From a virus (lineage: Duplodnaviria; Caudoviricetes): a stretch of DNA of 35,402 bases. This document shows positions 1 through 31,718 of the stretch, piece by piece (positions within the stretch are counted from its first letter, which is position 1; every line of letters begins with the position of its first letter). The stretch spans positions 1 to 35,402 of IMG/VR virus record IMGVR_UViG_3300037631_000271. The stretch is one strand, 5' to 3'. Below the pieces are notes generated by a model that saw only the letters and a program-made list of their open reading frames with translations, was not told the DNA's origin and searched no databases. Made by a program: the position numbers and the translations under genes.

Positions 1-862
1 CACTTGTGGTGTAAGTGTAAGTTCCCGCAGTGGATGAGCCAAAAAATGTCGGCGTCCAAGTGCCTTCTTCATAATCATCCAGCGCATTTGCCGCCGCCGT
101 ATCGCCGTTGAAGGTAAGGCCACCGCCGGACAAAAGACGGGCGGTTTCAGAGCCGCCAGAAAACATCACCAAATCGTTTGTTAATGCACCAACTCTTACG
201 GAACCATCATTGGATGTATTTGCATCTGAGAAAGTAGCAAAAGCATATGTTCCGGCTGTATGAGTTATGCTTGCAACCCTATTCTCACTTGCATTGACTG
301 TTAGTGTTCTTGCGGGAGAATTTGTGCCGATACCGACTTTATCATTACCGCCATCAACAACAAGCATATTAGCGTTGCCGTTGCTTTCAACACGGAAGTC
401 TACGTCTACGCTGTCCTCGTTGAGTACAGTTTCTGTGGGAGTTGCGGAAAAGCGTGACCTTGATGTACCAGCAACCTGTGTCATTAATGACCAAGTTGCA
501 TCTTCAGAGCCGTCGCTGACATCTGATGCAAGCACCTCAATTCCACAAAATGCATGGTCTGCACCGGCATCGTTATCAGCAGTCCAACTAATAAATCCGA
601 TAGCATCACCGTCGGCGGGAGAAGCAGAATCTCTTGTTAATACTAAATCAGGACCACGACCACCATCTGCGTCTGTAGACTTGAGTGTTAGGTTTGCACT
701 ATTGTCGTCAGTAGTGATTGTTGCGCCAGCACTTGATGTTATTGCGCCAGTAACATCAAGCGTACCCGCCGCTGTTGCGTTACCCGTAAGTGTGGTAGTG
801 CCGCTTACAGTGAGACTGTCAGCCGTATTAAATCGTGATACCCCAGAACCAATATACGGCAT
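1..862 (-). CDS. Tail fibre / receptor-binding protein, 3' end truncated by window edge
   Basis: Not in the ORF track because it runs off the window. ATG at 862-860 overlaps the upstream TAA (TAATG). It translates as MPYIGSGVSRFNTADSLTVSG...DFRVESNGNANMLVVDGGNDKVGIGT...ANALDDYEEGTWTPT, with motifs typical of marine phage fibres. Confidence 0.85.
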   Translation of the reverse strand, partial: MPYIGSGVSRFNTADSLTVSGTTTLTGNATAAGTLDVTGAITSSAGATITTDDNSANLTLKSTDADGGRGPDLVLTRDSASPADGDAIGFISWTADNDAGADHAFCGIEVLASDVSDGSEDATWSLMTQVAGTSRSRFSATPTETVLNEDSVDVDFRVESNGNANMLVVDGGNDKVGIGTNSPARTLTVNASENRVASITHTAGTYAFATFSDANTSNDGSVRVGALTNDLVMFSGGSETARLLSGGGLTFNGDTAAANALDDYEEGTWTPTFFGSSTAGTYTYTTS

Positions 863-7952: not shown

Positions 7953-8336
7953 CTATTTCTTTCCGAAGAACTTCGTTGCGCTTCGTACGCCAAAGCTTGC
8001 AGCAACAATAACGCCCAAGCTGTACTGGTACCATTCAGGCATTTGCTCCAGTTGTTGAAATCCGTGTGAGACGACATCTTCCATACCCGGTATGAATGCT
8101 AGGATCAGGGGAACCGAAAACAAGATAACCAGCCACTCATCCTTCCACGAGTTCTGACTACCCTTGATCGCTTCTAAGTCCCAGTCTATTTCACCTGTTG
8201 CTTTCTTTTCCATGATGACCGCTTCGGCTTTTGCCATCGCGACCTTCGCACCTGTTTCGGCTTTGGTCTTTTCGACCTTGCCCTGTAGCCATGTGCCAGC
8301 TAGTTCAGAAATCGGACCTATCAGTAGGTTTAACAT
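7953..8336 (-). CDS. Putative holin (3TM / GTA-holin-like)
   Basis: SWKDEWLVILFSVPLILAF...PEWYQYSLGVIVAASFGVR pattern with a basic C-terminus, upstream of the endolysin. Confidence 0.65.
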   Translation of the reverse strand: MLNLLIGPISELAGTWLQGKVEKTKAETGAKVAMAKAEAVIMEKKATGEIDWDLEAIKGSQNSWKDEWLVILFSVPLILAFIPGMEDVVSHGFQQLEQMPEWYQYSLGVIVAASFGVRSATKFFGKK

Positions 8337-8614
8337 TTCCACCTCTTCCGTGCTTGGCGAAGACGACTATTCGGATTCTTCGCTGCCTTCGGGAACTTCT
8401 TCATCTGTCCTGCAGAGCGGGCACAAAATGACTTGCGACGTTTTGCTGCCTTGCTTCCGGGTTTTACTTTACCTGTCACTGCAGTCTTGAGTTTGCTGCC
8501 GGGGTTCTTCTTGCGGTATGCAGCCACCCCAGCCTTCGTCATACCCGCACCCTTCTTGGTAGGGCGAAAGTTCTTCTTGTTGCGGGCAGGCATGTTGTCA
8601 GGCTTTTTTGCCAC
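8330..8614 (-). CDS. Small highly basic protein (RRKSFCAR family)
   Basis: 94 aa, very K/R-rich, GMTKAGVAAYRKKNPGSKLK...RRKSFCARS...ARKRWKC. Overlap-coupled with neighbours. Confidence 0.75.
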   Translation of the reverse strand: MAKKPDNMPARNKKNFRPTKKGAGMTKAGVAAYRKKNPGSKLKTAVTGKVKPGSKAAKRRKSFCARSAGQMKKFPKAAKNPNSRLRQARKRWKC

Positions 8615-8846
8615 TGGACTTCTTCCTTCTTCTGCCCGAAGCTGTTACAGACCAGTTCACTTTGCGTGGTCCGGTCTTCTTTGCTGCTTCTTTCTTGGTT
8701 ATGCGCTTGGCCACTTTGGCTGGCCTACATGCAGGATAGGGCCGCTTCTTCTTTTCTGATCCGGAACGACCACATTTCTTGCCGGTCTTTACATCCCGCC
8801 AGTCTTCCTTGAACCATTTCGTTAAGCCGCCCTTTGGTTTGGCCAT
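8598..8846 (-). CDS. Small highly basic protein
   Basis: 82 aa, GGLTKWFKEDWRDVKTGKKCGRS...YPACRP, coupled by TAATG. Confidence 0.75.
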   Translation of the reverse strand: MAKPKGGLTKWFKEDWRDVKTGKKCGRSGSEKKKRPYPACRPAKVAKRITKKEAAKKTGPRKVNWSVTASGRRRKKSSGKKA

Positions 8847-9028
8847 TAGGCGTACGTCCCACCACGCTTCTTATACGTACGAACAAGCCAAGCATTTGCG
8901 TATGCGCTTGGGTAAACATCGAATTTCTTCTTTGCTTCTGCTTTTACACGAGAGTAGAGAGCCTTGTTTTTAGGCGTAGGACTGCCTGACTTCTTCTTCT
9001 TTGGTTTGGCTGGTGCTCTAGGTGCCAT
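8846..9028 (-). CDS. Small highly basic protein
   Basis: 60 aa, NKALYSRVKAEAKKKFDVYPSAYANAWLVRTYKKRGGTY, with GGGGGA RBS. Confidence 0.75.
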   Translation of the reverse strand: MAPRAPAKPKKKKSGSPTPKNKALYSRVKAEAKKKFDVYPSAYANAWLVRTYKKRGGTYA

Positions 9029-11570: not shown

Positions 11571-14264
11571 TTAGTTAAAAAGATCACTTACGAACTTTTT
11601 AAAGAAATTTTTCTTAATGCGTTTTGCGCGAGGCGGGACTTTTCTGCCTTTGAGAGCAGCGGCAGCTATGTTTTCGTAGTATTCATTTAACTCGCGCTGC
11701 ATAGGGTCAAAAGAAGCAAACTCTTGTCTACCTGCCTGAAGAGAAAGAGGAGAAATAGGTGGCACTGAAGGGTCGGACTTAGATGCTGTCATTCGATTGT
11801 GATAATCGTAGTAGTCCATCAGACGTTCTTCCGCACGAGGAGTGCCTATTACATTTTTAAGTTTACCTTCATTGTGGATATAATTTAGTGCTGCGTGTCT
11901 AAGTTCATGCGCCATCGTTATAAATACACCTGCTCTACTCATTTCTTGCGGTGTGTTTATAATCTTGCCGTCTTTATCCCTACGTACTTCTAGAGCCGGA
12001 TTCTTTTCTGCGTAGTAATAGATAGACGGGATATCTGTACGTATATCCTTTCCTACTTGCATCTTTCCCAGTGTCGGCATCACTGTCTGATCAGTATCTG
12101 CCTTTGCGACCTCGACAGGACCGGGATACATTTCCTGTCCTTTTTTAGGAAAGTAAATGCCGCCAAGACTTGACGCCGCGTAATCCTCTCCTGTATTGGG
12201 GTTTCGAAGCATGACCCCCGTCATGTCAATTTCGCCCTTAGAGTACAAGTCCCAACCAAGCCGTGCTAGTTTATCGTCTTTGATGTACGACTCTAAGTCC
12301 GCGCGAAGTTCTACATCTGCAAGGGCTTCGTCTCTACGTCTATCGACAAGGGAGGGCTTGGGAGTCGGAAGAACCTCATCCCCTTCTGCGTACTTTCCCA
12401 CGTCGAGGAATCCACCTCCTGCAGCACCCACTGGGCGTTGACCGTTTTCTTCGATACGTTTAGATGTTTCTTTCTTGCCGCGATTATTGATCTTTTCGAG
12501 GCGGTCATATCCAATGATCTTGGCGATGTGTGGAGGTATGATAACTTCCCCACGAGAAACGGCTACGTCGATTTCTTCCTTAGATGGTGTACGTCCCATG
12601 ACTTCCTTGCCACCACGAACGCGATAGTTTTCGTATGCCTTGTTGAGCATCTTGGCTATATCTGTTTCACCGGCTATTTCGACGGCTGCAGCGTTGATGA
12701 CAAACGTGCCCTCTGGGACGCTCATAGGCTTGTCGTCAGCCACAGTGGCCGCTTCGGATACCTGTGATGGGGGACGCTCTACGAAGCCTGCTGGTGCAGC
12801 CTGTGGAGCGGTTCCGCCCATCTGCATACCGACACGGCCACCGTCTGCGAAGTACGCACCGGCAATTTCTTGTTCAGTGTAGCTATCTTGAAATCCAGAA
12901 GTAGTGTCTTGACCAAAACCTCCGGGATCAGCAGGATTAAAATCGTCATCTTCTTGCTGCTGCTGTTCTCGATATCTTTGTTCAGCCTCTTTTTGTCTTC
13001 TTTCTTTATCTCTAGCGGCCTGTGCTTCTGCCTGTTTTTTGGCTTCTTCTTCTCTAGCAGCAGCCATACGCTCTTCATTGCCGGGAAGACCAACAGCCAC
13101 TTCAACTCGTCTTCGCGCAAGATCGGCAGGAGTTCGACCTGCTTCGTAGCCCATAGAACCCGGTGCGCGGTATGCACTAGAAGCATAACTTGGACGGACT
13201 GCGCCCGCTACGGACGTGGTGCCCGCGCCTGCAGTTCCGCTGCCCTCGTCATCCTGTGTGGTGCCTGATCCATACTTACCGACTACGTAATTTTTGACAA
13301 AATCTTGCGCTGTTCCCAAATTATCATTGTACGTAGAACCGTCCTGTCGGCGTACAGTTTCGAACGTGCCTATACCGCCCCTCATACTTGCATCTAGGGC
13401 TTGTTTCATTTCGAGGGCGGCTGAAGAAACATTTATTCCCGCCAGACTAATTCCCCGTTCGTTCATAGCATCTACAAACAATTTTTCACGCAGGGCAGTG
13501 GCCTGACTAGCACTGCCTCCCTGAACTCCGGATGCGCTGTGAACAGTGCCGTATGCGTCCATAGCTGCGCCACCGATGCTGGTCAGATATCCCTTGCCAG
13601 TTTGCTCCCAACCGCCTCCATCTTCGTCGGCAACTTGGTTCTCCTGCATTGTGCCGGGAATAAATCCTCGTCGTATTGCCTCTACATTAGCAACTTGCTG
13701 CTGGGTCATTCCACCTAGAGTGCCACTGTATATTCTGCTGCCGGGGGCACGACTAATAGTTTGATTATTGAATTTGAACATAGCACCGCCGGTTCCGCCG
13801 GATTCTGCTATTTTGTTGGCATTTTTCAGTTGTTCTTTTCTGTTCATAGCTGCACCGACTGCCATCATTGCACCCAAGCCGGGTACGCCCGTAGCTGTGC
13901 CAATCAGTAGTTCTGGTTTGGTTTGTATTTGATTTTTAGCCCAGTCTACAAAACCGCTCAGTGATTTGTCTTTGCCAGCACCTGTTTTTTCTTGCTCAGT
14001 TTCGCTAAAGTTTTTTATGTAGTCATTGTAGTCATAATCTTCTGAGGAAAAGGCGGGCATTCCTGTGGTAATATTCATCTGGTTAAAAATGCTTGCCCCA
14101 TCGTCGTCCCCTACAGGTGAAAGAACGTCAGGACTAACAGTGTCAGTGGGATCAGCATCCACAGGTGGCGGAGCCTTTTTTACGTCGATGCCGCCAAATC
14201 CTCCATAGTAGTCAATGAAAGAAGACTGGTATTCGTCTGGTGTGTATGTTTTTCTGTCAACCAT
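11571..14264 (-). CDS. Putative internal virion (ejection) protein with C-terminal HEXXH zincin-like domain
   Basis: 897 aa, Gly/Ala-rich with a coiled coil, ADDKPMSVPEGTFVIN and VAVSRGEVII motifs, and ITMAHELRHAAL. Lies between portal and scaffold. Confidence 0.65.
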   Translation of the reverse strand: MVDRKTYTPDEYQSSFIDYYGGFGGIDVKKAPPPVDADPTDTVSPDVLSPVGDDDGASIFNQMNITTGMPAFSSEDYDYNDYIKNFSETEQEKTGAGKDKSLSGFVDWAKNQIQTKPELLIGTATGVPGLGAMMAVGAAMNRKEQLKNANKIAESGGTGGAMFKFNNQTISRAPGSRIYSGTLGGMTQQQVANVEAIRRGFIPGTMQENQVADEDGGGWEQTGKGYLTSIGGAAMDAYGTVHSASGVQGGSASQATALREKLFVDAMNERGISLAGINVSSAALEMKQALDASMRGGIGTFETVRRQDGSTYNDNLGTAQDFVKNYVVGKYGSGTTQDDEGSGTAGAGTTSVAGAVRPSYASSAYRAPGSMGYEAGRTPADLARRRVEVAVGLPGNEERMAAAREEEAKKQAEAQAARDKERRQKEAEQRYREQQQQEDDDFNPADPGGFGQDTTSGFQDSYTEQEIAGAYFADGGRVGMQMGGTAPQAAPAGFVERPPSQVSEAATVADDKPMSVPEGTFVINAAAVEIAGETDIAKMLNKAYENYRVRGGKEVMGRTPSKEEIDVAVSRGEVIIPPHIAKIIGYDRLEKINNRGKKETSKRIEENGQRPVGAAGGGFLDVGKYAEGDEVLPTPKPSLVDRRRDEALADVELRADLESYIKDDKLARLGWDLYSKGEIDMTGVMLRNPNTGEDYAASSLGGIYFPKKGQEMYPGPVEVAKADTDQTVMPTLGKMQVGKDIRTDIPSIYYYAEKNPALEVRRDKDGKIINTPQEMSRAGVFITMAHELRHAALNYIHNEGKLKNVIGTPRAEERLMDYYDYHNRMTASKSDPSVPPISPLSLQAGRQEFASFDPMQRELNEYYENIAAAALKGRKVPPRAKRIKKNFFKKFVSDLFN

Positions 14265-14481
14265 TGCTTTTTACCACTGCCTCGTGACTATCCTTCAACT
14301 TCAGGAGCATTTCCAGTAAACCCAGCTTCCCCTGCACTTGGCGCAGTTCCGACTCCGATTGTGCCGTTACCACGGCCCGAATCATCGACTCCCGGAGGTC
14401 CGTCAGGTACTCCTCCATTTGGGGCCATTCCTTGCTGTAGAGGAGAGGGGCCAGCTTCTGAGCCTGCTGCTTGTTGAGCAT
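14257..14481 (-). CDS. Small helical protein overlapping the portal 3' end
   Basis: 74 aa, AAGGA RBS, ELRQVQGKLGLLEMLLKLK resembles the small gene that usually follows portal. Its stop overlaps the start of the next gene. Confidence 0.65.
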   Translation of the reverse strand: MLNKQQAQKLAPLLYSKEWPQMEEYLTDLRESMIRAVVTAQSESELRQVQGKLGLLEMLLKLKDSHEAVVKSNG

Positions 14482-16408
14482 TTTGCATCATTCCTTGTAG
14501 CATCTGTGCGTACACTTGCGCCTCGTTGGCGTCGTTAACCAAGCTGTCAGGATCGATGTCCTGTGAAATAGCTAGTTCACGCATCAAGTTTGGTATCTTC
14601 ACAAACGGAGCCAGCATAGGGTTGGCTACAGTTTGCAGCAGTGAGGTGAGTCGTTGTGTACGTACTTCCTTTTGCATGACGGCTGCTACGCCACGTGGTT
14701 TAATCTCTAGGTCACCTGTGATGTCATCTATGTTTTCTCCGAACTGCATGTTCCACTGAAAGAACGCTTCACCAATCGGCTTGAGCAGATGATCGTCGAT
14801 GTTCTTGATAACCGTCTTCATCGACAAGCCTGCACTGCCCATCAGCATAGACAAGCCTGCTGCAGTGCGTCCGGTGCCGGTGACTCCCGTCTGGCCGTGT
14901 GTGATCGACGGAATGCCTGTCTCTTCGTCAGCAAGCTGGCGTGAGATTTGATACATCTGGATGTTTTCACCGGCAGTGTTCGGAAACTTGAGGCCGTTGA
15001 TTGCCGTGCCGGTGACGCCCGACTGACGACGGAATATCTTACCGGGGAAGATGTCCATGTTCTGTCCGGGTACCAACGACGCCTCATCGACATCGAAGAC
15101 GAGGTTGCCAGCGAGGGCAAGGTTGTCAATTGCCATACGAACGTGGCCGTTCATCAGCATCTGTGCGTCTTCCATGTTCTCCGCAACACCAACGCCCCAG
15201 ATTTGATAGGGATTGATTTCGAATGGAAAAGCCTGATACGGAATACGTGCTGGGGTGAACGGGTTTACGACGCAGCGAAGGATCATTGTACCGCATACCC
15301 AGATGTTGACTTGCATCTGGTCAAACTCTGACATGTCTTCAGCACCCTCTAGTCCGACTTCTTTTGCGAACTTAGAGTCGAGGACGCCCCAATATTCTAG
15401 GACTTCGTAACGGTTCTCAGAGATGTGAGGTTCGGTTTCGTCCTCACGGATTGTGTCCTCATAGTATTTATCTTCGTAGTTTGGCCCCTTTGCGAGGCAC
15501 TCTTCAATTGCTTGGGCGTCAAAGTGAGGACGCATAACAAGGCTACGAAGCTGCTGTCGATTCATGCGGTGACGTTCGATAACGTACTCGCAGTCCTCTA
15601 CAGACGTGGCGGACGGATCAGGATGAAAGTCCCAGACAGATACGTGTTCGATGCGAGGGACCGTACGCTCGTAGGGGTCGTACTCCCGCTCTCCCTCTTC
15701 ATTCATCTTCCAGTTGTGAACACGCTTGTAGAAGTTGAATGGTCCCTTGACAATACCTGTGCCGAACAGAGACGACTCAAAGATAGCCTTGCGAAACTCG
15801 CTGACGGCATTTGTGTCGAGCAACTGATCGTGGATACACTTCTCCATCTTCCGTGCCTGCTCTTTTGCAGGCTCGAACTGCGGCTCTCCTGCGCGGGACT
15901 TGCCCGCTAGGATCATATCTCCGAAGTCTTTGCCGTAGGAACCCAGACGATGCGGCTCATTGGCTTGCATCGCTCCGGGTGCAAGTTCACGACCATCTCC
16001 CGGAAATCCGTAGGGATCACTGGGTGCTTGGGTTGCTTCGTCTAGGGGCGTACGCATATGAGCAAACTGCTCAATGCCTTCCGGCATCGGAGTTGCTTCT
16101 ACTACAAGTGGGAACTTCTTGTTGGCAAACAGAATGTCGATAATCTGCCCGTACGCAGCAAGGACCTTTGTCTTGGTGATCTTGATGAACACCTTAGACT
16201 TCTCGCTGTCGCGGTACTGCGTCGTACTATCGTAGATTCCACGAAAGTTTTTATACGCCTGCAGCCATCGCTGTTCGTATGAGAACCGTCCGTTTTCTGC
16301 GTCGTCAAACTTAGCCTTGATGTGGCCCGCAAGTCCGGGCATCTGCTCATCAGGGTTTATAATCGGAATCGCTCGTTCGTCGTCCGGCTCTAGGAAATTA
16401 TCGGCCAT
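14288..16408 (-). CDS. Portal protein
   Basis: 706 aa, RWLQAYKNFRG, SKVFIKITKTKV, VSVWDFHPDP, GVGVAENMEDAQ, RMAIDNLAL, TAAGLSMLM. Confidence 0.92.
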   Translation of the reverse strand: MADNFLEPDDERAIPIINPDEQMPGLAGHIKAKFDDAENGRFSYEQRWLQAYKNFRGIYDSTTQYRDSEKSKVFIKITKTKVLAAYGQIIDILFANKKFPLVVEATPMPEGIEQFAHMRTPLDEATQAPSDPYGFPGDGRELAPGAMQANEPHRLGSYGKDFGDMILAGKSRAGEPQFEPAKEQARKMEKCIHDQLLDTNAVSEFRKAIFESSLFGTGIVKGPFNFYKRVHNWKMNEEGEREYDPYERTVPRIEHVSVWDFHPDPSATSVEDCEYVIERHRMNRQQLRSLVMRPHFDAQAIEECLAKGPNYEDKYYEDTIREDETEPHISENRYEVLEYWGVLDSKFAKEVGLEGAEDMSEFDQMQVNIWVCGTMILRCVVNPFTPARIPYQAFPFEINPYQIWGVGVAENMEDAQMLMNGHVRMAIDNLALAGNLVFDVDEASLVPGQNMDIFPGKIFRRQSGVTGTAINGLKFPNTAGENIQMYQISRQLADEETGIPSITHGQTGVTGTGRTAAGLSMLMGSAGLSMKTVIKNIDDHLLKPIGEAFFQWNMQFGENIDDITGDLEIKPRGVAAVMQKEVRTQRLTSLLQTVANPMLAPFVKIPNLMRELAISQDIDPDSLVNDANEAQVYAQMLQGMMQNAQQAAGSEAGPSPLQQGMAPNGGVPDGPPGVDDSGRGNGTIGVGTAPSAGEAGFTGNAPEVEG

Positions 16409-16417
16409 GTCGCTTCC

Positions 16418-16636
16418 TTAGTAGTCGCGTTCGTCTGCCATCTTAAACAGTGAAGCTTCCACAGTTGCTTTTGTTTGCTTCTTGGGCATAGCTTCAATCA
16501 TCGGGCCAGTTACGACACGACCATCAAACTCCAAGCCTTCACGGTAGAGTTGTGTTGCGCCTTCGTCTTTATCGACGCTGGTCTTGTCGGCACTCATAAT
16601 GTATGATGCGCCGTAGTTGTAGTTATTACCGGGCAT
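16418..16636 (-). CDS. Small hypothetical protein
   Basis: 72 aa, GGGGAG RBS, fills the gap between neighbours. Confidence 0.7.
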   Translation of the reverse strand: MPGNNYNYGASYIMSADKTSVDKDEGATQLYREGLEFDGRVVTGPMIEAMPKKQTKATVEASLFKMADERDY

Positions 16637-16649
16637 AGGTTTCTCTCCC

Positions 16650-18422
16650 CTATGTTTGTGGTTGTTGTGATTCAGTATCTAGGAAACTCTGACGCGGTGC
16701 GTCCTCCATAGGATACGATGCAAACTCTGGTTTGATATACCCCAGAGCATCTGTTTGAGGGGCAACGTCTGTTCGCGGACCAAGCCCTGATCCACCGGGG
16801 GTAGTCGCCCTCTGACTCTCTCTGAATTCTCTGTCACTAAAAGCCATTCCGGGGGGTGCCACTAATTCTGATGCCCCTGCTGCAACACCCTTCATGCCAG
16901 CTACAAAGGAAGTGTCTCCCTGCGCTTCTGCTTCTCTGGAAGCTACAACTGCGCTAGATGCTACAGCAACAGGCAGTATGCCTTTTAGTATCTTGCCGCC
17001 TGTATCAGTAATTTGTTTGAACTTAAACCCTGCCTTTTCCATAGCTGAACGAACTTCAGGATTCTGTTCGAATAGTTCGTTGAGACTTGTGGGTGAGGGC
17101 TTTTCTGCGGGTGCAGCTTGTGCAGGCGACGGGACAACTGGTGCAGCGGGCTGGTCAAACATGCCCGGTATGTCATAAGTTGCGCTGGTTACCCTATCCG
17201 TTTCAAAATTAAATCTGTCCGCTACGTCAACGCCCTGTACACCATCAAACCAGTTTCCGACTGTCTGTGCGGCGTCCCTCTCTGCAGGATAGAACGTACC
17301 CCGTGGGCGTGGAAGATACCCAGACTTAGCAGTCTTTGATCGTGTCTCTGCGCCAGATTTCAAACTTCTTCCCTGTAGGAAGTCAAGCATTGTATCAGAC
17401 ATCTGCACTTCAAAGGCTGCTACATTTGCAAATACGTTACGAAGAAGAGGCGCACCAAACTTTCCCTTTTTATCATCGCCTTTATACGCAGGATCGTCAG
17501 GCACAAGAGTGTTAAATTCTTTGTTTGTTAAGTTATCTTTAATAATAGGAGTGGAGGTCTTGATACGAGAAAGAACCTCTGTCATATCCTCCGTGTTTAC
17601 TTGGCGGTATTTTCCATTTTTACCTTCTATTACAAACACAGGTGCAGCCTTATCGGCCTTTATCCTGCTCTCAATAAATGAACGTATGCCCGCATCTTCT
17701 TGATTAGCAGTTAGACGCTGTTGAAGACGAGCGTGTGCCTGCTCGTTTAGGGGCACGTCTTGTGGAATAGCCGTCCCGCGTTTTCCGCCCACCTTTTGTG
17801 CGCCCGTACGTTTATCTACGTCTGGAGTGGCTTTAGTTTGAGGCGTAATCTCAATAGTGCCCCTATCAACTTTATATTCTGCACCAGTTAGTCCCGCTAT
17901 TGCTCCACCGCGATAGCCTGTTTGCAAGTTAACATATATAGCATCAGCAATTACAGCATCATTCCCCCCGCCCTGACGGATTGAATCTAGCTGCTGCATA
18001 AATTCAGACCATCCGGCTTTATTCTGGACAATGATTGCAATTTCAGTTTGTTTTGGTGCGGATACTCGCTCTCCAAAAATATTAAAAGTCTGAGGATCAT
18101 TCGACTCTAGGCCCGGAAGCAAGTTCAGTGCTGGAGATTGTGGATCAGCATTGAATATTTGGCGATTAACATCCCTAGAAATCAGACGAAGATCATCTTG
18201 CAGAGAATTAGATGCGCCTTGACTCTTCATTCCTTCAAGCATCGTGTCGATAGGACGTACACCGTTTTCGTTAGGAGTAAATGCCTCTACAAGGGGCATG
18301 TCTCCATACTGTTTTAATGCACCCTTCGTACTAAACCTCGCAACTTTTCCTGCACCACGAGCATTATACGCATCGGCAGCTTCACGTAGGGTTATTTGCG
18401 TTGGGTCTTTTTTCTCTGCCAT
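16650..18422 (-). CDS. Diverged tyrosine recombinase-fold protein with long C-terminal extension
   Basis: Ordered motifs TLREAADAY, GDMPL, LQTGYR(171)GGAIAGL, VPL, PVF, PLLR(328)NVFA, DFLQGR(352) and SGY(369). Confidence 0.7.
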   Translation of the reverse strand: MAEKKDPTQITLREAADAYNARGAGKVARFSTKGALKQYGDMPLVEAFTPNENGVRPIDTMLEGMKSQGASNSLQDDLRLISRDVNRQIFNADPQSPALNLLPGLESNDPQTFNIFGERVSAPKQTEIAIIVQNKAGWSEFMQQLDSIRQGGGNDAVIADAIYVNLQTGYRGGAIAGLTGAEYKVDRGTIEITPQTKATPDVDKRTGAQKVGGKRGTAIPQDVPLNEQAHARLQQRLTANQEDAGIRSFIESRIKADKAAPVFVIEGKNGKYRQVNTEDMTEVLSRIKTSTPIIKDNLTNKEFNTLVPDDPAYKGDDKKGKFGAPLLRNVFANVAAFEVQMSDTMLDFLQGRSLKSGAETRSKTAKSGYLPRPRGTFYPAERDAAQTVGNWFDGVQGVDVADRFNFETDRVTSATYDIPGMFDQPAAPVVPSPAQAAPAEKPSPTSLNELFEQNPEVRSAMEKAGFKFKQITDTGGKILKGILPVAVASSAVVASREAEAQGDTSFVAGMKGVAAGASELVAPPGMAFSDREFRESQRATTPGGSGLGPRTDVAPQTDALGYIKPEFASYPMEDAPRQSFLDTESQQPQT

Positions 18423-20093
18423 TTAGTATCCGAATACTTCGTCTTGAACTTGATGTACTTGATTCTTGATTGCATTGAGTTGCTGGTGTATAGAGGCGTA
18501 ACCACTCATGCGTGTCATCATTCCGTAACGCAGGGCATCGTATGCGTGATCCTCTGCCTTCGTATCTACGTCTTCGCTGTTCGTCTTGGAGAGTGGTACG
18601 CCTGCAATCTGCTTGACGATGTTCTGACACGAAGAGAAGAAGCGTAGGCGTGGCTCCTCTGTGTAGGGATCGTCAGCGAGGCGACGGTGTATCTCCATCT
18701 TTCCCTGAATACGGTTGCGATCTGATGGTGTCCATCGTACGCCCTCTCGCATCATCACTTCTGCAATTGATGGCCCGAAACCCGTCTTGTTCCAGCATGA
18801 CGAGTCGAGGACCGTGTAGTGAGGTAGTGGGTCTAGCTGTTCCGCTTCTAGTATTTTACCAGCTAGTTCTTCTGCTGTCAAGTGTTTTTGATATAGTTCT
18901 CTGTATATCCAGATATTGTTGTCCCAGTCGATTGCACCCCAGAGAACGCATGAGGGTGCTGCGTATCCGTAGTCGGCCATTCGAATGCGCGGCCAGTTCG
19001 TCGGGAGTTCGAATGGCTCGACGACGTGCTTGGCTCGTGAGAACTCTGGGAAGGCGGCTCCCTCTGCTACGTCCCAGTCGCCTTCGAGGAGACGCCTGCG
19101 TTCTACGTCTGGCAGTGATCTGAGCATCGCCTCGTATTGACCGTCTGCCATGAGGTGCGGATTGTCAGTCAAGCGGGCAGGGACAAACTTTCGGAAGAAG
19201 AGAGGCTGACCCTCCTTCTCGTGTCCCTTCGGCCAGAGGAACGGCTTGTGCGTTTCTATATCGAAGGCAGGAAAAGGCTTATTCTCAGGTGTTCCTTCGA
19301 TGTAGGTTTTCTTGACCCACCAACCACCCACTCCTCCGGGGTTGGCTGTGCAGCGCATGTACAGGTGTTGCTGGAGTTCAGGATCAGTAGTACGAAGGCG
19401 AGAACGCAGGTAGTCCCACACATAAGGCGTGGGGTATTGTGTAATTTCATCTATGCCAATCCAGTTGAATGCCTGTCCCTGAAAACGAGTTACGTCCTTG
19501 TCCTTGTCGAGATAGGTGAACCAGATGGTTGCGCCGGAGGGAAAGACCCACGTAGACTTCGACTCACGAAACTTCGCACCGGGAAACGCCTTCGTGTATA
19601 GTTGGCGTGACTTGTCGATCAGTTCGGTTAGTTCGTCGAGAGTACGCCTAAGAAGAAGCCCACGATGATTAGCGTTGTGACAGAAGCGCAGAGGATCGGC
19701 CAAGAGAGCGAAAGATTTACCGCCCCCGGCTGCACCCCCGTAGAGAACATCTCTTTCACCCGCGCTGAGAAACTCTTCCTGTGGTCCCTCATTCGGACGA
19801 AATACGATCTCACTGTCTTCAACCAAGTCCGCAACGGCTGCAGGTAGATCATCCAAATCTCCTTGATCAATGACTGTCGTATCCTTGCCAACAAGGGCCT
19901 TCTCCACTTTACCTATCTTGGTTTCTAGTTTGCGGGCGTAGCGACGTTTGTCCTCTGCCGCCTTCGTTGTCTTGGCTGCACGACGCTTGGCCCCGTTGAG
20001 TTTCTTTTGGGCAGCACGTCGGGCACGTTCCTTTGTAGACAGGTTGTACGTGGCTTTGGGTGCGTTGGGGTCCTTTTTAGGGCGTCCTGCCAC
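18423..20093 (-). CDS. terL: Terminase large subunit
   Basis: Walker A GGAAGGGKS, Walker B WIGIDE, coupling motif TANPGG, nuclease motifs MADYG and DHAYDALRY. Confidence 0.95.
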   Translation of the reverse strand: MAGRPKKDPNAPKATYNLSTKERARRAAQKKLNGAKRRAAKTTKAAEDKRRYARKLETKIGKVEKALVGKDTTVIDQGDLDDLPAAVADLVEDSEIVFRPNEGPQEEFLSAGERDVLYGGAAGGGKSFALLADPLRFCHNANHRGLLLRRTLDELTELIDKSRQLYTKAFPGAKFRESKSTWVFPSGATIWFTYLDKDKDVTRFQGQAFNWIGIDEITQYPTPYVWDYLRSRLRTTDPELQQHLYMRCTANPGGVGGWWVKKTYIEGTPENKPFPAFDIETHKPFLWPKGHEKEGQPLFFRKFVPARLTDNPHLMADGQYEAMLRSLPDVERRRLLEGDWDVAEGAAFPEFSRAKHVVEPFELPTNWPRIRMADYGYAAPSCVLWGAIDWDNNIWIYRELYQKHLTAEELAGKILEAEQLDPLPHYTVLDSSCWNKTGFGPSIAEVMMREGVRWTPSDRNRIQGKMEIHRRLADDPYTEEPRLRFFSSCQNIVKQIAGVPLSKTNSEDVDTKAEDHAYDALRYGMMTRMSGYASIHQQLNAIKNQVHQVQDEVFGY

Positions 20094-20309
20094 CTAGTTC
20101 TTCTCCGCGCTTCCCTGTGCGGAGCGGCCCTTACAACTGCCGCCGTACGCCATCTTTTTTCGGGACTGATCTACAACCATAGGTATATAGTCGTTCACGT
20201 GCAGATTTTTAATTCCTGCTGCCTCGTCCTGCATGAGAAGAATGTCTACTTGTTTTCTCTGGCTGGAGGTCAAGTCTCTATACTTTGGGTACTTGGACAT
20301 ATCAGCCAT
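20094..20309 (-). CDS. Small hypothetical protein ending in a KMAYGG motif
   Basis: 71 aa, GAGG RBS, coupled to terS and terL. Confidence 0.65.
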   Translation of the reverse strand: MADMSKYPKYRDLTSSQRKQVDILLMQDEAAGIKNLHVNDYIPMVVDQSRKKMAYGGSCKGRSAQGSAEKN

Positions 20310-20706
20310 CGATCACGACCTCTTTTTTGGGTGGGAGCAGGACAACGCCGTGTACTGCAGTTACATTGTGGTTGATTGTCTCCGCCTGCTTCACTCCTAC
20401 GCGATTGAGAAGGCTCTCAGCGGCCTTGAGACGCAGATCATCACCGCGTTCGGGGGCGGGGTTGTCAATTGTGTCTACGAGGCGTGTAGCAGCCTTGTAG
20501 GCGTTCATAGATAGGACATCTTTCGTGCGATCTACGATCTCATCGGCGAGAGTTTTGCGTAACCAGACTGCGCTGCCCTTCGAATAGCCCGCATCGACGG
20601 CTGCGGCAGTCACGTTGCCACCGTTTTCGAAGAGAATGTCGAGGAACTGCGTCTGTTGGGGTGTGAGTTCCCGCTTTTTCGGTGTTTGTTGGGGTAGGAG
20701 GTTCAT
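20302..20706 (-). CDS. terS: Terminase small subunit
   Basis: Start ATG 20706. LTPQQTQFLD...GGNVTAAAVDAGYS HTH and RLKAAESLLNRVG; located upstream of terL. Confidence 0.8.
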   Translation of the reverse strand: MNLLPQQTPKKRELTPQQTQFLDILFENGGNVTAAAVDAGYSKGSAVWLRKTLADEIVDRTKDVLSMNAYKAATRLVDTIDNPAPERGDDLRLKAAESLLNRVGVKQAETINHNVTAVHGVVLLPPKKEVVIDG

Positions 20707-20708
20707 AT

Positions 20709-20909
20709 CTACGTGGATTCCTGCGCGACTATGGTGCATTGGGCACCGACGATGATCATTCCGGGCGTAATCGTGCGTATTTCGCCTATCATCTCGACGG
20801 CACGGGTGCCACACTCGCCCTTGTCAAGGTAGGGACCCCGTTTGTCGGTGAATTGTGTGCAGTCGTTGGGACTATGAAGCCAACATGCAAGGATCATGGC
20901 GGTGAACAT
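20709..20909 (-). CDS. Small hypothetical protein with hydrophobic N-terminus and Cys residues
   Basis: 66 aa, GGGA RBS, first ORF after the leftward promoter. Confidence 0.6.
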   Translation of the reverse strand: MFTAMILACWLHSPNDCTQFTDKRGPYLDKGECGTRAVEMIGEIRTITPGMIIVGAQCTIVAQEST

Positions 20910-21027
20910 CGGTGTTTCCCGTGAAAAAAGGAGGAGTGAGTCGCATTCATGTCCGATACCACTGATTGTATGACGAAGTAATTTTCGTTGTGGGGTGGTT
21001 CGACATAAAAATGCGGCTCACGTCAAC

Positions 21028-21056
21028 AGTATAGGTACTTTTTACATGTGTGTCAA
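21028..21056 (-). promoter_or_regulatory. Strong leftward sigma70 promoter (packaging/structural operon)
   Basis: TTGACA (21056-21051), 17 bp, TATACT (21033-21028). Confidence 0.8.
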
Positions 21057-21065
21057 CTTTTTTTC

Positions 21066-21094
21066 TTGACAAAAATGAAATTCAACTGTACTAT
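21066..21094 (+). promoter_or_regulatory. Strong rightward sigma70 promoter facing a non-coding region
   Basis: TTGACA (21066-21071), 17 bp, TACTAT (21089-21094). Confidence 0.75.
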
Positions 21095-21103
21095 GGGCAT
21101 AGG

Positions 21104-21493
21104 CCCGCCGGGGTAAACCCCATAGGTACCCGCCGGTATCCCGCTGACTACCCCAACGTATCCTTTTTACGCATATCGATAACTACACCGATACAAAATC
21201 GATGGCGGTATTGCTAGCATATGCGGGGGTACCCCAGTGGCCCTTGCGTGCGCCCGCGCACAGCCATTTATTTTTCCATTTGCCGCCCTTGCCAAGGTGC
21301 CCCAGCCCCAGACAAACCCGCCACATATCCCCGCCGGATTATCCCGCCATATATAACGCCCGCACACCCGCGCGCGTACACTAATTTGTCATGTTGGTTA
21401 ATTAGTGGGGTGGCCCGTCGAGTGCAGAAAGCGCAGCAATCCCCGAACATGCAACCCGCCAGATAATCCAGCCTATACAACCCGCAAGGTTAT
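21104..21493 (+). repeat. Dispersed CCCGCC-(AT-rich) short repeats and palindromes; candidate terminus/packaging region
   Basis: CCCGCCGG (21104, 21129), CCCGCCACATAT, CCCGCCGGATTAT and CCCGCCATATAT (21317-21354), CCCGCCAGATAAT, CCCGCAAGGTTAT. Palindromes TGCTAGCA, GCATATGC and GGGGTACCCC lie at 21212-21235. Confidence 0.6.
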
Positions 21494-21511
21494 TTACTGG
21501 CACCGGCCCAT

Positions 21512-21539
21512 AAAAAAACCCCCAGCACTAGGCCGGGGG
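21512..21539 (-). terminator. Rho-independent terminator
   Basis: CCCCCGGC-CTAGT-GCTGGGGG followed by T7 on the minus strand. Confidence 0.8.
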
Positions 21540-21590
21540 CAAGTTGGAGGGAGGAAAGCGCGGTATTAGCCCCCCGCGCAGGGTAACTGA

Positions 21591-22325
21591 TTAAGTTTCA
21601 AAGCGGTTTCCCTTTTGCATGTTTTCACGTGCTGAAATAACTCGCAGATTCCACGGCACGTGCAAGCCGCAGACGTTCCTACCCTTCAGCGGAACGATAT
21701 GATCTACGTGACAAACGATCTTTCCGGCTTTTCTGTTCTTGCGCCTCATATCTCTATAGATCGCTCTCAATCCTGCAACGTCTACCCATGGTGGTTGGGC
21801 TTTTCGTTGCAACACACGCCTTGCCGCCTGATATGCCGTTTGATACTCCATGTACCTTTCTTTATTTTCGATCTGATATTCTCTGACACGCGCACGTTCC
21901 TTTTCGGCATTGGCCGCGCGCCATTTCCTCTGGTGCTCTGCCCGGTATTCTTCAGTCCTGCGAATAGGGGCTTTTTTGTTACAGCAAAACGCGAGATCAA
22001 AACTTGCTCTCTCGCAAATTACACAATTTGCGCTACTAGTCCAGTGGGCTGCAACGTGCCCCTCTCTGCATGGCTGGCCCGTAAAATAGGTTGTAAGCCC
22101 TGCCGCCTTTGCTTCCTTCCTAGCCATCAAATACTGCCGCAGATGCGCCGGGACAGGGTGCTTTTGTGGGCGCTCTATGTCGCCCCAATATCTACGATCT
22201 AAACATTCCTGACAGTTGCCGCCAGACGTCAAACGCCCGGAAACGTGGCCGTGCTTACACGGCTTCCCGGTGAAATACCTTTGCAACCCCGCCGCCTTCG
22301 CTTCTTTTCTGGTGATAATTTCCAT
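21591..22325 (-). CDS. HNH endonuclease with two N-terminal Cys/His repeats
   Basis: C-terminal HVDHIVPLKGRNVCGLHVPWNLRVISARENMQKGN; two copies of RKEAKAAGLxxYFTGxPCxxGH...NCxxC. Confidence 0.9.
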   Translation of the reverse strand: MEIITRKEAKAAGLQRYFTGKPCKHGHVSGRLTSGGNCQECLDRRYWGDIERPQKHPVPAHLRQYLMARKEAKAAGLTTYFTGQPCREGHVAAHWTSSANCVICERASFDLAFCCNKKAPIRRTEEYRAEHQRKWRAANAEKERARVREYQIENKERYMEYQTAYQAARRVLQRKAQPPWVDVAGLRAIYRDMRRKNRKAGKIVCHVDHIVPLKGRNVCGLHVPWNLRVISARENMQKGNRFET

Positions 22326-26868: not shown

Positions 26869-27043
26869 CGTTTCCACCCACTCTCATGCACAGGAGTTCT
26901 TGATTCATTGGCACATTTTCCCAGAATAACTTCGTCGATGCGACGTAACAGTCTGACATGGTTTCATACTCCGCTATAGGCTTCGAGTCGAACTCTGATC
27001 GATTAATTGCTGTCACTAGCAGCAGCACCCACTTCACTGTCAT
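26858..27043 (-). CDS. Small hypothetical protein with hydrophobic N-terminus and 2 Cys
   Basis: MTVKWVLLLVTA...YETMSDC...LLCMRV, with GGAGG upstream. Confidence 0.6.
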   Translation of the reverse strand: MTVKWVLLLVTAINRSEFDSKPIAEYETMSDCYVASTKLFWENVPMNQELLCMRVGGNDEE

Positions 27044-27221
27044 CGTCCAGTGCCTCCAAGTATATGTCGATACCCTCACGCATCAAGTCAGACACAGCAA
27101 CTTGTTCCCTGCTTGTCTTCTGTAAGCGTTCAGAGTGTGCAGCCAGTCTCTCATACTGCTTGACTGACATCAACAGACTATAGGTCTTTGTCGGTTCATC
27201 TATCTTCGCTGGTCTTCCCAT
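27003..27221 (-). CDS. Putative ribbon-helix-helix DNA-binding protein
   Basis: MGRP...KTYSLLM (strand), helix, then VSDLMREGIDIYL fits the RHH pattern. Confidence 0.6.
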   Translation of the reverse strand: MGRPAKIDEPTKTYSLLMSVKQYERLAAHSERLQKTSREQVAVSDLMREGIDIYLEALDDDSEVGAAASDSN

Positions 27222-27339
27222 CACGAATGTCCTTCTTAGCTTGTTTATCTTTTTCTTTAGTACGCTTGTCAGGTATTACTTGTTTACCATACTTGCGTAA
27301 CTGTTTAGCTATAGGGTTGATTTTATTAACCTTTTTCAT
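27196..27339 (-). CDS. Small basic protein (47 aa)
   Basis: Below the ORF-track cutoff. MKKVNKINPIAKQLRKYGKQVIPDKR...; first ORF of the leftward unit. Confidence 0.5.
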   Translation of the reverse strand: MKKVNKINPIAKQLRKYGKQVIPDKRTKEKDKQAKKDIRDGKTSEDR

Positions 27340-27372
27340 AACAGGGTATTCCCTATAGGGTGTTGTTCTTTG

Positions 27373-27444
27373 TGTGTAGCTGGTTTGTCAACAGGGGTCA
27401 AGAGATTTTTTCGTGTTGACAAGATTTGTCATGTCGATTATGCA
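27373..27444. promoter_or_regulatory. Divergent promoter region between early and replication genes
   Basis: Leftward TTGACC-17-TACACA (27401-27373) and rightward TTGACA-17-TATGCA (27416-27444), at the strand switch. Confidence 0.55.
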
Positions 27445-27479
27445 GGGGACATGTCTTCTGACAAACAAGGAACGCAACG

Positions 27480-28289
27480 ATGAAATCACCAGCTTGGTTA
27501 TGTGGGTATGTCGAGTCACTCGACTTCCCTGCGCTGACACGATATAGATCAGACTGTCCTGTCTGCGGCAAGAAGAATACATTTAGCGTGACGGACGACG
27601 GAATGCAACGCCTGTGGTATTGTTTCCACGCCGACTGCAACGTGTCTGGTCGCACAGGTATCACCCTAACAAAAGAACACGCCGCCCGAACCCTGCGTGG
27701 GTCGCAGGCTCTGGCTCCTGCTCCTTCCCGTACTAGTAACACTTACGAGGTACCTGACACATTTGTCAGTCTTTCTCGTAGTTTAGACGCGGAACTTTAT
27801 GTTAAACGTGTACAAGCATACGATGCGTATCTGTCGGGCAGGGCTGACATTCGATACGACTTCAAGCGTAATCGTGCGGTATTTTTAATCAAAGACGGCA
27901 ACAAGGTTGTCGATGCGGCAGGGAGATCAATCGATGGTAGAACACCTAAGTGGTATCGCTATGGATCAAGTAAAAGTCCTTTTGTTTCTGGGGCAAGTTT
28001 ATCTGTGGCCTGTGTTGTTGAAGACTGTGCTAGTGCTTGCAGTATTAGCGGTGTTGTCACTGGGGTGGCAATCTTAGGAACTAATCTTCTTAGCGAACAC
28101 ATCAGCGTATTGAAACAATATGACCGTGTGTTCGTCGCGCTTGACAAGGATGCCACTGACAAGGCTATTACGATGGTACGTGCGCTGCACACCCACGTGC
28201 CGACAAAACTCATGGTTCTTCGAACCGACTTGAAAAACATGCAAAAGGACGAACGTGATGACTTCCTACGATCCTACATCGATAGATAA
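27480..28289 (+). CDS. DNA primase (zinc-binding + TOPRIM)
   Basis: CPVC...WYCFHADC zinc finger; TOPRIM motifs VVEDCASA and ALDKDA. Confidence 0.9.
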   Translation: MKSPAWLCGYVESLDFPALTRYRSDCPVCGKKNTFSVTDDGMQRLWYCFHADCNVSGRTGITLTKEHAARTLRGSQALAPAPSRTSNTYEVPDTFVSLSRSLDAELYVKRVQAYDAYLSGRADIRYDFKRNRAVFLIKDGNKVVDAAGRSIDGRTPKWYRYGSSKSPFVSGASLSVACVVEDCASACSISGVVTGVAILGTNLLSEHISVLKQYDRVFVALDKDATDKAITMVRALHTHVPTKLMVLRTDLKNMQKDERDDFLRSYIDR

Positions 28290-29487: not shown

Positions 29488-29639
29488 TGAGCAACCACGA
29501 AAACGAAGAAGCACTGGAGCGCCTCTACGACGAGGAGTATGTTCGTATACAAAAGCGTTGGCCTATGCTATCAGATGAACACACAGAGAAGTTCGCTGCA
29601 TACTTTGCACAGAAGCGGTTCGAGGAGGAGTCGGAATGA
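29487..29639 (+). CDS. Small acidic hypothetical protein (50 aa)
   Basis: Below the ORF-track cutoff. MSNHENEEALERLYDEE...FEEESE, with TGATG and ATGA coupling at its two ends. Confidence 0.7.
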   Translation: MSNHENEEALERLYDEEYVRIQKRWPMLSDEHTEKFAAYFAQKRFEEESE

Positions 29640-30220
29640 ATGTCCTGACCTTTGACGTGGAGACAACCCACACGGGCAAGCCGAACGGTGGCACGACTGC
29701 GTTGCCCTACTTCGGTAACCGCCTCGTGTCGATAGGCTACAAGTGGCTGGGTGAGGACAATGTGTTCTACCACTGCTACTACCACGAGACTGAGCCACCC
29801 ACGCCCAACGCAATGCACAGCTTTCAGACTGCCCTATACTGTGCCGATGTGGTCTTGGGCCAGAACATCAAGTTTGACTTGCAGTGGATACGTGACTGCG
29901 GGTTCGTATACAAGGGAGACATCTATGATACTATGGTTGCGGAGTATGTTCTATCAAAAGCGAGACGCTGGCCTCTTGGACTTGCTGCTCTTGCAAAAAA
30001 GTATGACACAGTGCAAAAGGAGAAGGACCTTGTTCAGCCGTATCTGGACGGGGGCAAGACGTTCTACGAGATACCGTGGGAGATAGTACGAGAGTATGGC
30101 ATCGCTGATGTCATAAGCACAGAGCAGGTGGCTCTGAAACAACTGGATGCCTTTGGCACTACATTCGAGGACTTATACAATGACGAACGATCTACTGCCG
30201 ACACTGCGCTTGTCGTTTGA
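29636..30220 (+). CDS. 3'-5' proofreading exonuclease domain of family A DNA polymerase (separate ORF)
   Basis: ExoI TFDVET, ExoII GQNIKFD, YDTM and ExoIII EYGIADV; GGAGGAG RBS. Confidence 0.9.
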   Translation: MNVLTFDVETTHTGKPNGGTTALPYFGNRLVSIGYKWLGEDNVFYHCYYHETEPPTPNAMHSFQTALYCADVVLGQNIKFDLQWIRDCGFVYKGDIYDTMVAEYVLSKARRWPLGLAALAKKYDTVQKEKDLVQPYLDGGKTFYEIPWEIVREYGIADVISTEQVALKQLDAFGTTFEDLYNDERSTADTALVV

Positions 30221-31718
30221 GATGGCCGACACACTGGCCCGCATCGAACGCAATGGCTTGCGGGTCAACCTAGATACACTACAAGAGATTGAGAAGCAGT
30301 ACCAAGAGGAACTCGACACACTCGAACTGCGCCTCAACGAGATGGCACGTGAGGCTATGGGTGACACGCCCATCAGTCTGACCAGCCCAGACGACAGGTC
30401 GATGCTTCTCTACTCTCGCAAGGTAAGAGACAAGAAGGCATGGTCACAGATGTTCAACTTGGGTATGGAGCGTCGTGGTGCCACGATGAAGCCCAAGCAG
30501 CGCACACGCATGTCAGGCAAAGACTTCCGCCTCGCTGTACGCAACAACACGGATGTCGTATATAAGACAATTGGTGAGCAGTGCCGCACCTGTGTCGGGT
30601 TTGGCAAAGTCCGGCCCGTACGAAAGGACGGCACACCAAGCAAGGCACTGCGTATCTGCAAGACGTGTGACGGCAAGGGTGTGGTCTATCGTCCGACGAG
30701 TGAGGTAGCAGGCTTCAAGATCGTACCACGCAACGTGCGTGACGTGGCATCTGCTGGATTTAAGACGGACAAGGACACACTGGCTGAACGTGAACTCGAA
30801 CTGTCGGGTCCGGCCCGTGAGTTCGCATCGTCGTATGTGCGCTACAATGCTCTGCGTATGTATTTGGGAACCTTTGTGGAGGGGATGAAAAACAATGTCG
30901 ATGACTACGGAATCGTACATCCGGAATTTATGCAGTGTGTTACGGCGACGGGTCGCCTTTCGTCTCGTAACCCGAACTTTCAGAATATGCCACGAGGTAA
31001 TACCTTCGAGATACGCAAGGTTGTCGAGAGTCGCTTTGAGGACGGCAAGATCATTGAGGGCGACTACTCGCAACTCGAATTCAGAGTGGCAGGATTTCTA
31101 GCCAATGATCAGCAGGCGTATGATGACGTGCGTATCGGCACCGACGTACACAGCTACACCGCGGGTGTCATAGGCTGCTCACGACAAGAAGCGAAGGCCC
31201 ACACATTCAAGCCTCTCTATGGTGGCACTACGGGCACAGAGGCCCAGCAACGCTACTACAGGGCCTTCAAGGAGAAGTATGGGGGTGTATCCCTCTGGCA
31301 TGAAGACTTGCAGCGAGAGGCCGTCGAGAAGCGCGTAGTGACGCTTCCCTCTGGTAGGCAGTACGCTTTTCCTGATGCGCGGTGGACAAAGTACGGCACG
31401 GCAACACACAGGACAAACATATGCAACTATCCTGTGCAGGGATTTGCAACCGCTGACCTGCTGCCCGCTGCCCTCGTTCGTCTCGACAGTCTGTTCATAG
31501 AAAACAAACTACAGTCTGTGATATGCAACACGGTCCACGACTCGATTGTGATCGACTGTCACCCAGACGAAAAAATCATTTGCGTCAAGCTGATGCGAGA
31601 GGCTATGCTCTCTCTGCCTGAAGAGACGATACGACGCTATGGTGTCGAGTACGACATGCCCGTCGAGATTGAGATAAAAATGGGCGATAACTGGCTTGAC
31701 TTGCACGTCGTAGAGTAG
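30180..31718 (+). CDS. polA: Family A DNA polymerase domain with DnaJ-like zinc-finger insert
   Basis: TATGRLSSRNPNFQNMP, motif A DYSQLEFR, motif B RQEAKAHTFKPLYG, motif C TVHDS; insert CRTCVGFG...CKTCDGKG. Likely start is ATG 30180 with GAGG RBS. Confidence 0.93.
   Translation: MTNDLLPTLRLSFEMADTLARIERNGLRVNLDTLQEIEKQYQEELDTLELRLNEMAREAMGDTPISLTSPDDRSMLLYSRKVRDKKAWSQMFNLGMERRGATMKPKQRTRMSGKDFRLAVRNNTDVVYKTIGEQCRTCVGFGKVRPVRKDGTPSKALRICKTCDGKGVVYRPTSEVAGFKIVPRNVRDVASAGFKTDKDTLAERELELSGPAREFASSYVRYNALRMYLGTFVEGMKNNVDDYGIVHPEFMQCVTATGRLSSRNPNFQNMPRGNTFEIRKVVESRFEDGKIIEGDYSQLEFRVAGFLANDQQAYDDVRIGTDVHSYTAGVIGCSRQEAKAHTFKPLYGGTTGTEAQQRYYRAFKEKYGGVSLWHEDLQREAVEKRVVTLPSGRQYAFPDARWTKYGTATHRTNICNYPVQGFATADLLPAALVRLDSLFIENKLQSVICNTVHDSIVIDCHPDEKIICVKLMREAMLSLPEETIRRYGVEYDMPVEIEIKMGDNWLDLHVVE

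Follow-up and report, generated by a model that had tools for sequence, protein, structure and literature searches.

A divergent tyrosine recombinase in the packaging operon of HMO-2011-type phages, possibly loaded into the head and injected with the genome

The viral DNA analyzed here (hereafter the window, a stretch of 35,402 nucleotides) encodes in its packaging operon a 590-aa protein that, by its conserved residues, is a tyrosine recombinase, and presumably an active one given the purifying selection on its core. It is a new variant of the tyrosine-recombinase family, real and unusual. Judging from sequence patterns, it is about an even call that a marine podovirus lineage packages a catalytically active tyrosine recombinase via a short C-terminal sorting signal, common to other internal proteins, and injects it together with the genome. 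Coordinates are collected in Table 1.

Table 1. Features of the recombinase locus and of its 590-aa product (positions are those of the window; residues are those of the recombinase).
Feature	Position	Strand	Remarks
Post-portal protein, 897 aa, polymorphic	11571..14264	minus	
Portal protein, SU10-type	14288..16408	minus	
72-aa ORF, conserved	16418..16636	minus	between recombinase and portal
Tyrosine recombinase gene, 590 aa	16650..18422	minus (18422→16650)	
Core-binding domain of recombinase	residues ~8-120		from domain matches
Catalytic domain of recombinase	residues ~125-396		R171, K210 (candidate), R328, R352, Y369
Low-confidence tail of recombinase	residues ~430-590		
Swappable tail, residues 470-590	16653..17015	minus	hydrophobic helix 476-494 (moderate); SFL end motif
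Terminase large subunit (terL)	18423..20093	minus	
71-aa ORF	20094..20309	minus	between terS and terL
Terminase small subunit (terS)	20302..20814	minus	
Back-to-back sigma-70-like promoters	21028..21094	both directions	common to recombinase clades
Non-coding region	21194..21590		GGGCCAC..GGGGTACCCC block conserved across clades; CCCGCC repeats; terminator 21540-21518

The window portal is 45%–53% identical to the portals of HTVC033P, HTVC103P-type phages, CRP roseophages, and HMO-2011, and we therefore consider the window phage to be HMO-2011-type; its DNA polymerase carries a DnaJ CXXCXGXG insert. Upstream (5′) of the recombinase gene lie terS, whose true start is probably ~37 codons inside the annotated ORF, the 71-aa ORF, and terL. 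The terL stop codon abuts the recombinase start codon within one operon, and the two genes are probably translationally coupled. Downstream (3′) follow the 72-aa ORF, the SU10-type portal, the 897-aa protein (likely head cargo), a likely scaffold, and the major capsid gene. The preliminary description had placed the 590-aa ORF between terL and portal, naming no strand; the ORF is real, but the 72-aa ORF separates it from the portal gene. Two small ORFs preceding the portal of HTVC033P (L101:4341-4859) end in F.MA[DE]E.DY, like this 72-aa ORF.

Elsewhere in the window, DNA polymerase I (29636-31718) is encoded by two overlapping ORFs, one for the exonuclease and one for the DnaJ insert plus polymerase. 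The same two-ORF arrangement, either a conserved split or a frameshift, occurs in four related genomes (G001-G004), and HMO-2011, HTVC033P, and CRP-3 have a single ORF. An HNH endonuclease gene at 21591-22325 is sporadic, being present in two related loci (L054 and L055) and absent from most relatives, and a 33% identical homolog sits at the terL-portal junction of spring phage MW202701 (L117:5247-5906). Three very Lys-rich small ORFs (94, 82, and 60 aa) follow the capsid genes at 8330-9028 and possibly encode DNA-condensing core proteins. The divergent promoter region at 27003-27480, where HMO-2011 has an integrase, holds none here, and a 73-aa ORF in it looks, by eye, like a ribbon-helix-helix regulator.

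Searched alone, the window protein had no match in Pfam (including PF00589), the PDB, or annotated phages, and PHROGs gave just a weak match to its tail. A relative 40% identical to it carries PF00589, which matches 11 of 36 slot proteins (that is, proteins encoded at this position) with E values up to 0.05. All 14 PDB matches of the slot-family profile were recombinases (E 2.5e-10 to 0.018), and a profile from which the close relatives of the window protein had been left out still recovered it (E 2.5e-9 at Z=1e6). The AlphaFold model (pLDDT 69; tail <50) has a tyrosine-recombinase fold, in line with the preliminary description. Its best VIA matches were XerA (Z 14.2; rmsd 7.0, 252 residues aligned) and Tn1549 Int (Z 13.1; rmsd 6.4, 261 aligned), followed by Brujita Int (Z 12.6), TopIB (Z 9.4), and protelomerases (Z 5.8-6.2; TelK, 6.2); the top 13 rows were all tyrosine recombinases, and Foldseek agrees. 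The domain layout of the window copy leaves no room for an arm-binding domain.

The motifs first read from the window alone (LQTGYR171, K210, P325-x-x-R328, QGR352, and Y369) were all found at the positions claimed. Among 36 slot proteins with 12%–44% identity, the only invariant columns are M1, R171, F263, R328, and Y369, and the catalytic motifs thus exceed chance. Conservation extends across the best 150 representatives, of which 142 have at least 500 aa: in a de novo alignment R171 was kept in 149, K210 in 101, F263 and R328 in 150 each, and Y369 in 141, while position 352 held H or R in 149. A profile search revealed a large family, with 122 clusters at 50% identity and E<1e-30, and 310 at 1e-10. 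Values of dN/dS over the core were 0.04-0.16 in 8 of 10 pairs, the other two being saturated, and the core is under strong purifying selection within clades.

Two features once singled out as distinctive did not hold as such. The position of the HxxR His is occupied in the best 150 representatives by S (53), K (27), T (22), Y (10), A (10), R (9), G (7), P (5), or Q (5), with His absent from the top residues. The HMO-2011 and CRP-3 integrases read MDLRR and RDLRR at the same site, both without the His, and CRP-3 integrates at tRNA-Met, as stated in PMC6918029. Since these ordinary integrases share the loss, the missing His is not diagnostic and does not indicate non-integrase chemistry. Similarly, Arg352, proposed as an SSV1-type mark, is a polymorphism (R in 49 and H in 100 of 150), and SSV1 Int ranked only ninth in the VIA list, tied with others. 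SSV1-type integrases carry attP inside their gene, which is split upon integration.

The gene occupies a fixed slot, and the terL-portal synteny raised in the preliminary description was borne out. Among 80 viral loci selected by terL, a set from which the family profile was partly built, both terL and portal were visible in 57, all of which had a family member (57/57); 17 more show the recombinase and 6 end too early. Portal-selected metagenome loci (n = 80), which share some contigs with the terL-selected set, gave 64/64 where both neighbors were visible. Of 45 loci found with a distant member (P0028), again a set with some contigs in common with the others, terL lay upstream in 41 of 42, and all 35 with enough DNA had the portal downstream. 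Such constant presence fits a needed job in the lytic cycle. The sole frameshifted slot gene seen (L048, 5989-7891) is possibly an assembly error. No slot gene of such size was found in HMO-2011, HTVC033P, CRP-207, CRP-3 (these four also searched with the profile), HTVC115P, or a spring phage, and HMO-2011-type phages therefore do not require a slot recombinase. Two contigs with portals 62%–63% identical likewise had no slot gene of recombinase size: the slot of one (L137:186-1205, portal 63% identical) is filled by a 339-aa ORF with no match to the recombinase profile, and the other (L138) has no large slot gene. A search with a loose first pass found no other PF00589 gene in four near-complete relatives of 49-57 kb.

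The slot proteins are diverse and exchanged among close relatives. Clustering of 86 gave 35 clusters at 60% identity and 12 at 35%, and of 155 gave 56 and 11, respectively. The recombinase clade was common to 9 of 57 terL pairs at least 97% identical, and the 12 clade labels, mapped onto a 61-row terL tree, needed 38 changes (minimum 11; shuffled 44.5); clades swap even between terL copies 99%–100% identical. In co-occurring phages only the gene itself is exchanged, over a stretch that begins at the terL stop and ends in the gene's last codons, with joints at 16636/16661 and 18423/18425. Two kinds of ~135-aa N-terminal add-on were each found on several cores. Members of 55 aa on megabase contigs (the P0051 cluster), considered as split integrases, were unrelated sequences joined by a clustering artifact.

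The C-terminal tail (residues 401-590), earlier described as Ala/Pro/Gly-rich, is richer than the core in Ala and Pro (14% and 10% versus 10% and 5%) but not in Gly (8% versus 9%). The window's tail is also found on cores of at least five other clades, and a hydrophobic 19-mer is present in 73 of 120 tails but in only 7 of 120 cores; the Atlas gave no usable match for the tail. Of 49 distinct slot C-termini, 35 have within their last 16 aa a three-residue motif, [SNG]F[LMIV], that we first spotted by eye in the slot proteins themselves, and 14 lack it; among 193 other ORFs, taken from the window and four contigs, 6 carry this end motif. It also occurs in 38 of 45 portal-selected slot C-termini and in 74 of the 142 long representatives, against a background of 44 of 1278 internal windows. 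Four of the six background carriers are one ~180-aa protein, which precedes genes of 860-1160 and 1560-1660 aa in a five-gene cluster that resembles in size and order the ejection genes T7 gp14-16 and SU10 gp20-24, as these are described in PMC8954989 and PMC9509320. From position and size, this protein is a putative member of an ejection cluster; it has no name in Pfam, PHROGs, or the Atlas, its Atlas matches being unnamed viral clusters. All 15 further loci of the ~180-aa protein (several identical) have the end motif, a ~170-aa homolog in HMO-2011 and HTVC033P ends in a GLMA variant, and the largest ejection-like proteins lack the motif. That slot tails and cargo-like proteins have an end motif in common hints at head loading, and we rate loading of the recombinase into the head as somewhat probable.

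Neighboring genes are variable too. The post-portal proteins are polymorphic: they are 421-1213 aa long, are in some cases encoded by two ORFs, and differ in their C-terminal domains, several copies having HExxH motifs. The end motif is present in 22 of 67 of them and absent from the window's 897-aa protein, a central stretch of which may resemble a tape-measure C-terminal motif. The terS-terL interval of related loci holds one to four small ORFs with unrelated N-termini and a common basic GRxA..SAEK ending (GRxA in 85 of 102 ORFs), possibly a second cargo or DNA-binding signal.

In keeping with the preliminary description, no ordinary integrase context was found around the gene: there is no intergenic space beside it for attP, the search turned up no tRNA genes, and just 2 of 92 slot genes contain T-loop-like words. 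A synonymous-conservation scan of the slot gene found no patch common to clusters. The gene of a locus (L002) whose protein is identical to the window's contains no inverted repeat matching at 9 of 11 positions around a spacer of 5-9 nt, and inverted repeats at 8-of-11 are fully conserved in only 4 of 17 clusters, at differing positions. Three scanned regions held no long palindrome, and the rows listed, which are contigs only, included no strand-change joint. Outside the gene, clade-private 14-mers numbered 0-4 in five clusters and 74-335 in five others, the latter read as general relatedness, and no convincing clade-private word was found. Two GTDB scans found no prophage (terL, 0; portal, three short phage-only contigs), a result that is weak if the host is poorly sampled, and no split gene flanked by host DNA appeared among the 80 portal-selected loci.

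Between 20910 and 21590 lie a sigma-70 promoter pair, a terminator, and a G/C-tract block, each of which recurs across clades; the minus-strand promoter (21056-21028; 11/12 matches, near-consensus sigma-70) faces terS-terL-recombinase-portal. A 34-bp element at 21051-21084, considered as an att core, was rejected as the back-to-back sigma-70 -35 pair that recurs across clades; it has loose ends on both sides in three runs, and an exact scan for it found one near-identical phage only. Contigs break near 21209-21243 and 21554-21587 in four runs. A 370-bp unitig (21214-21583) had 1.1-1.5x flank depth in three runs and was missing in a fourth, all runs being contigs. There is a weak hint that 21194-21590 is a candidate packaging end or short terminal repeat. 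Some linkage of the non-coding region with clade is indicated, since both members are of one clade in 9 of the 10 most similar pairs; in one pair the region 20910-21590 is 96% identical and the recombinase cores are 37% identical. For a relative, MQM1 (portal 41% identical), terminal repeats of 327 bp are predicted in PMC10410586.

Head loading would be compatible with each of the explanations considered here. Of the three rivals to the reading we prefer, the foremost, though in our judgment unlikely, is that of a misplaced genuine integrase, packaged or not, with each clade targeting a different host site in phages that can lysogenize. Integrases and Xer enzymes are the best matches both by sequence and by fold, the four near-complete relatives yielded no second integrase, and integrase modules typically show such exchange of clades between nearly identical phages. 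The HxxR His is also absent from the group's ordinary integrases, among which that of CRP-3 is integrative (PMC6918029). Against it, the tail is left unexplained, there is no space beside the gene where attP could lie, tRNA genes were not found, and T-loop-like words are confined to 2 of 92 slot genes. The gene has neither a consistent synonymous-conserved patch nor a conserved inverted repeat, the 80 portal-selected loci include no host-flanked split gene, and the two GTDB scans gave no prophage, although the last point is weak if the host is poorly sampled.

Next in probability, and likewise unlikely, is a packaging-stage enzyme resembling VLF-1 that, tethered by its tail, would resolve concatemers or branches or relax DNA at the terminase-portal motor. 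The abutting of the recombinase start and terL stop in one operon and the constant presence of an intact gene wherever both neighbors are visible (the frameshifted L048 aside) agree with it, and VLF-1 itself is a virion tyrosine recombinase whose Tyr mutant yields non-infectious virus, according to PMC3649998. A VLF-1 model appeared at rank 28 (E 0.008) in the BFVD fold search, and TopIB was among the VIA matches cited above. Such a role agrees with the position and not with the swapping: a protein working with a conserved motor would be expected to follow terL, whereas clades swap between terL copies 99%–100% identical; moreover, these genomes already encode an endonuclease, and the named relatives package without a slot recombinase. 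Last, and improbable in our estimate, is an injected conflict effector that would act on the DNA of the host or of competitors by nicking, covalent trapping, or rearrangement, with a specificity that diversifies in an arms race. The extreme diversity (56 clusters at 60% among 155 proteins, and 122 at 50% with E<1e-30), a distribution over the terL tree that is close to random (38 changes, against 44.5 when shuffled), the other polymorphic cargo-like slots flanking the recombinase, and the lack of any site found in the phage's own genome would suit it. Against it stand the strong purifying selection within clades, the failure to identify a target, and the fact that, where both neighbors are visible, the gene is never lost or replaced by another effector type except in the frameshifted L048; a survey of polyvalent proteins names no recombinase in its main text (PMC5512222).

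The reading that we prefer, tentatively, is that a packaged and ejected recombinase joins the ends of the incoming genome. A two-domain tyrosine recombinase would likely be loaded into the phage head by its C-terminal tail and likely be ejected together with the DNA, whereupon it could catalyze the joining of the linear genome ends into a circle. Its substrate may be short direct terminal repeats, and the enzyme would have relaxed sequence specificity, as no clade-specific site was found. End joining fits best because of the constant presence of the gene, its intact residues, its coupling to the packaging operon, its cargo-like tail, and the absence of att or lox sites. The role would resemble the one proposed in PMC7290940 for the non-catalytic gp44. 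A self-acting circularizing enzyme alone does not explain 11-12 clades under 35% identity, and rapid swapping suits an integrase or a conflict effector better than it suits end joining; we infer that swapping of the core reflects host or defense pressure on an injected protein.

If true, tailed phages would possess a virion-borne recombinase or integrase acting before any phage gene is expressed, and in dozens of exchangeable specificity variants. This could change the reading of "no lysogeny genes" for several HMO-2011-type subgroups as given in PMC9038755. The family, large and mostly missed by Pfam, is a pool of natural recombinase variants, and its end motif is a testable candidate head-sorting signal. 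A full-text literature search, with most subscription journals outside its scope, found no report of the slot recombinase. PMC9038755, on HMO-2011-type phages, describes an upstream integrase only, and the account of HTVC103P-type relatives in bioRxiv 10.1101/2019.12.14.876532 reports that no integrase was found.

Like XerA (4a8e/5hxy), XerD, XerH, Tn1549 Int (6emy/6en0), Brujita Int (5vfz), and the lambda Int core, the slot protein combines a core-binding with a catalytic domain, and it has the R..K..R..H/R..Y order of simple tyrosine recombinases. Unlike these, it lacks the HxxR His, carries a shuffled tail of ~170-200 aa, is fixed in a packaging operon, and has no recognizable site. Phage P1 Cre is also a tyrosine recombinase encoded near packaging genes; it is made after infection and circularizes incoming DNA via an adjacent 13-8-13 loxP site. 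No strong inverted-repeat site of this kind was found beside or in the slot recombinase gene. Within the same phage group, HMO-2011 gp09 and CRP-3 gp02 (subgroup I/III integrases) also lack the HxxR His; these HMO-2011-type integrases lie upstream of primase, have 292-357 aa and no tail, and in CRP-3 use tRNA-Met. They match the slot profile over a 35-column box II stretch only (probability 4.6%), and the slot recombinase shows neither their position upstream of the replication module nor homology to HMO-2011 Int.

Two virion proteins offer parallels for the role proposed. As described in PMC7290940, gp44 of Staphylococcus phage 80alpha, together with SPP1 gp7-like proteins and T4 gp2, is the product of a head-operon gene that is packaged and ejected and protects genome ends, and it is proposed to aid circularization. 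It differs in being a non-catalytic DNA-end binder without a recombinase domain, from headful Firmicutes phages. VLF-1 of baculoviruses, nudiviruses, and bracoviruses is a virion tyrosine recombinase tied to genome packaging (PMC3649998, PMC11654684); it belongs to insect viruses of another lineage, and its fold match to the slot protein is ordinary. According to PMC11654684, a VLF-1-type role is unknown in other viruses; a packaged and injected recombinase in tailed phages would, if true, be an independent case.
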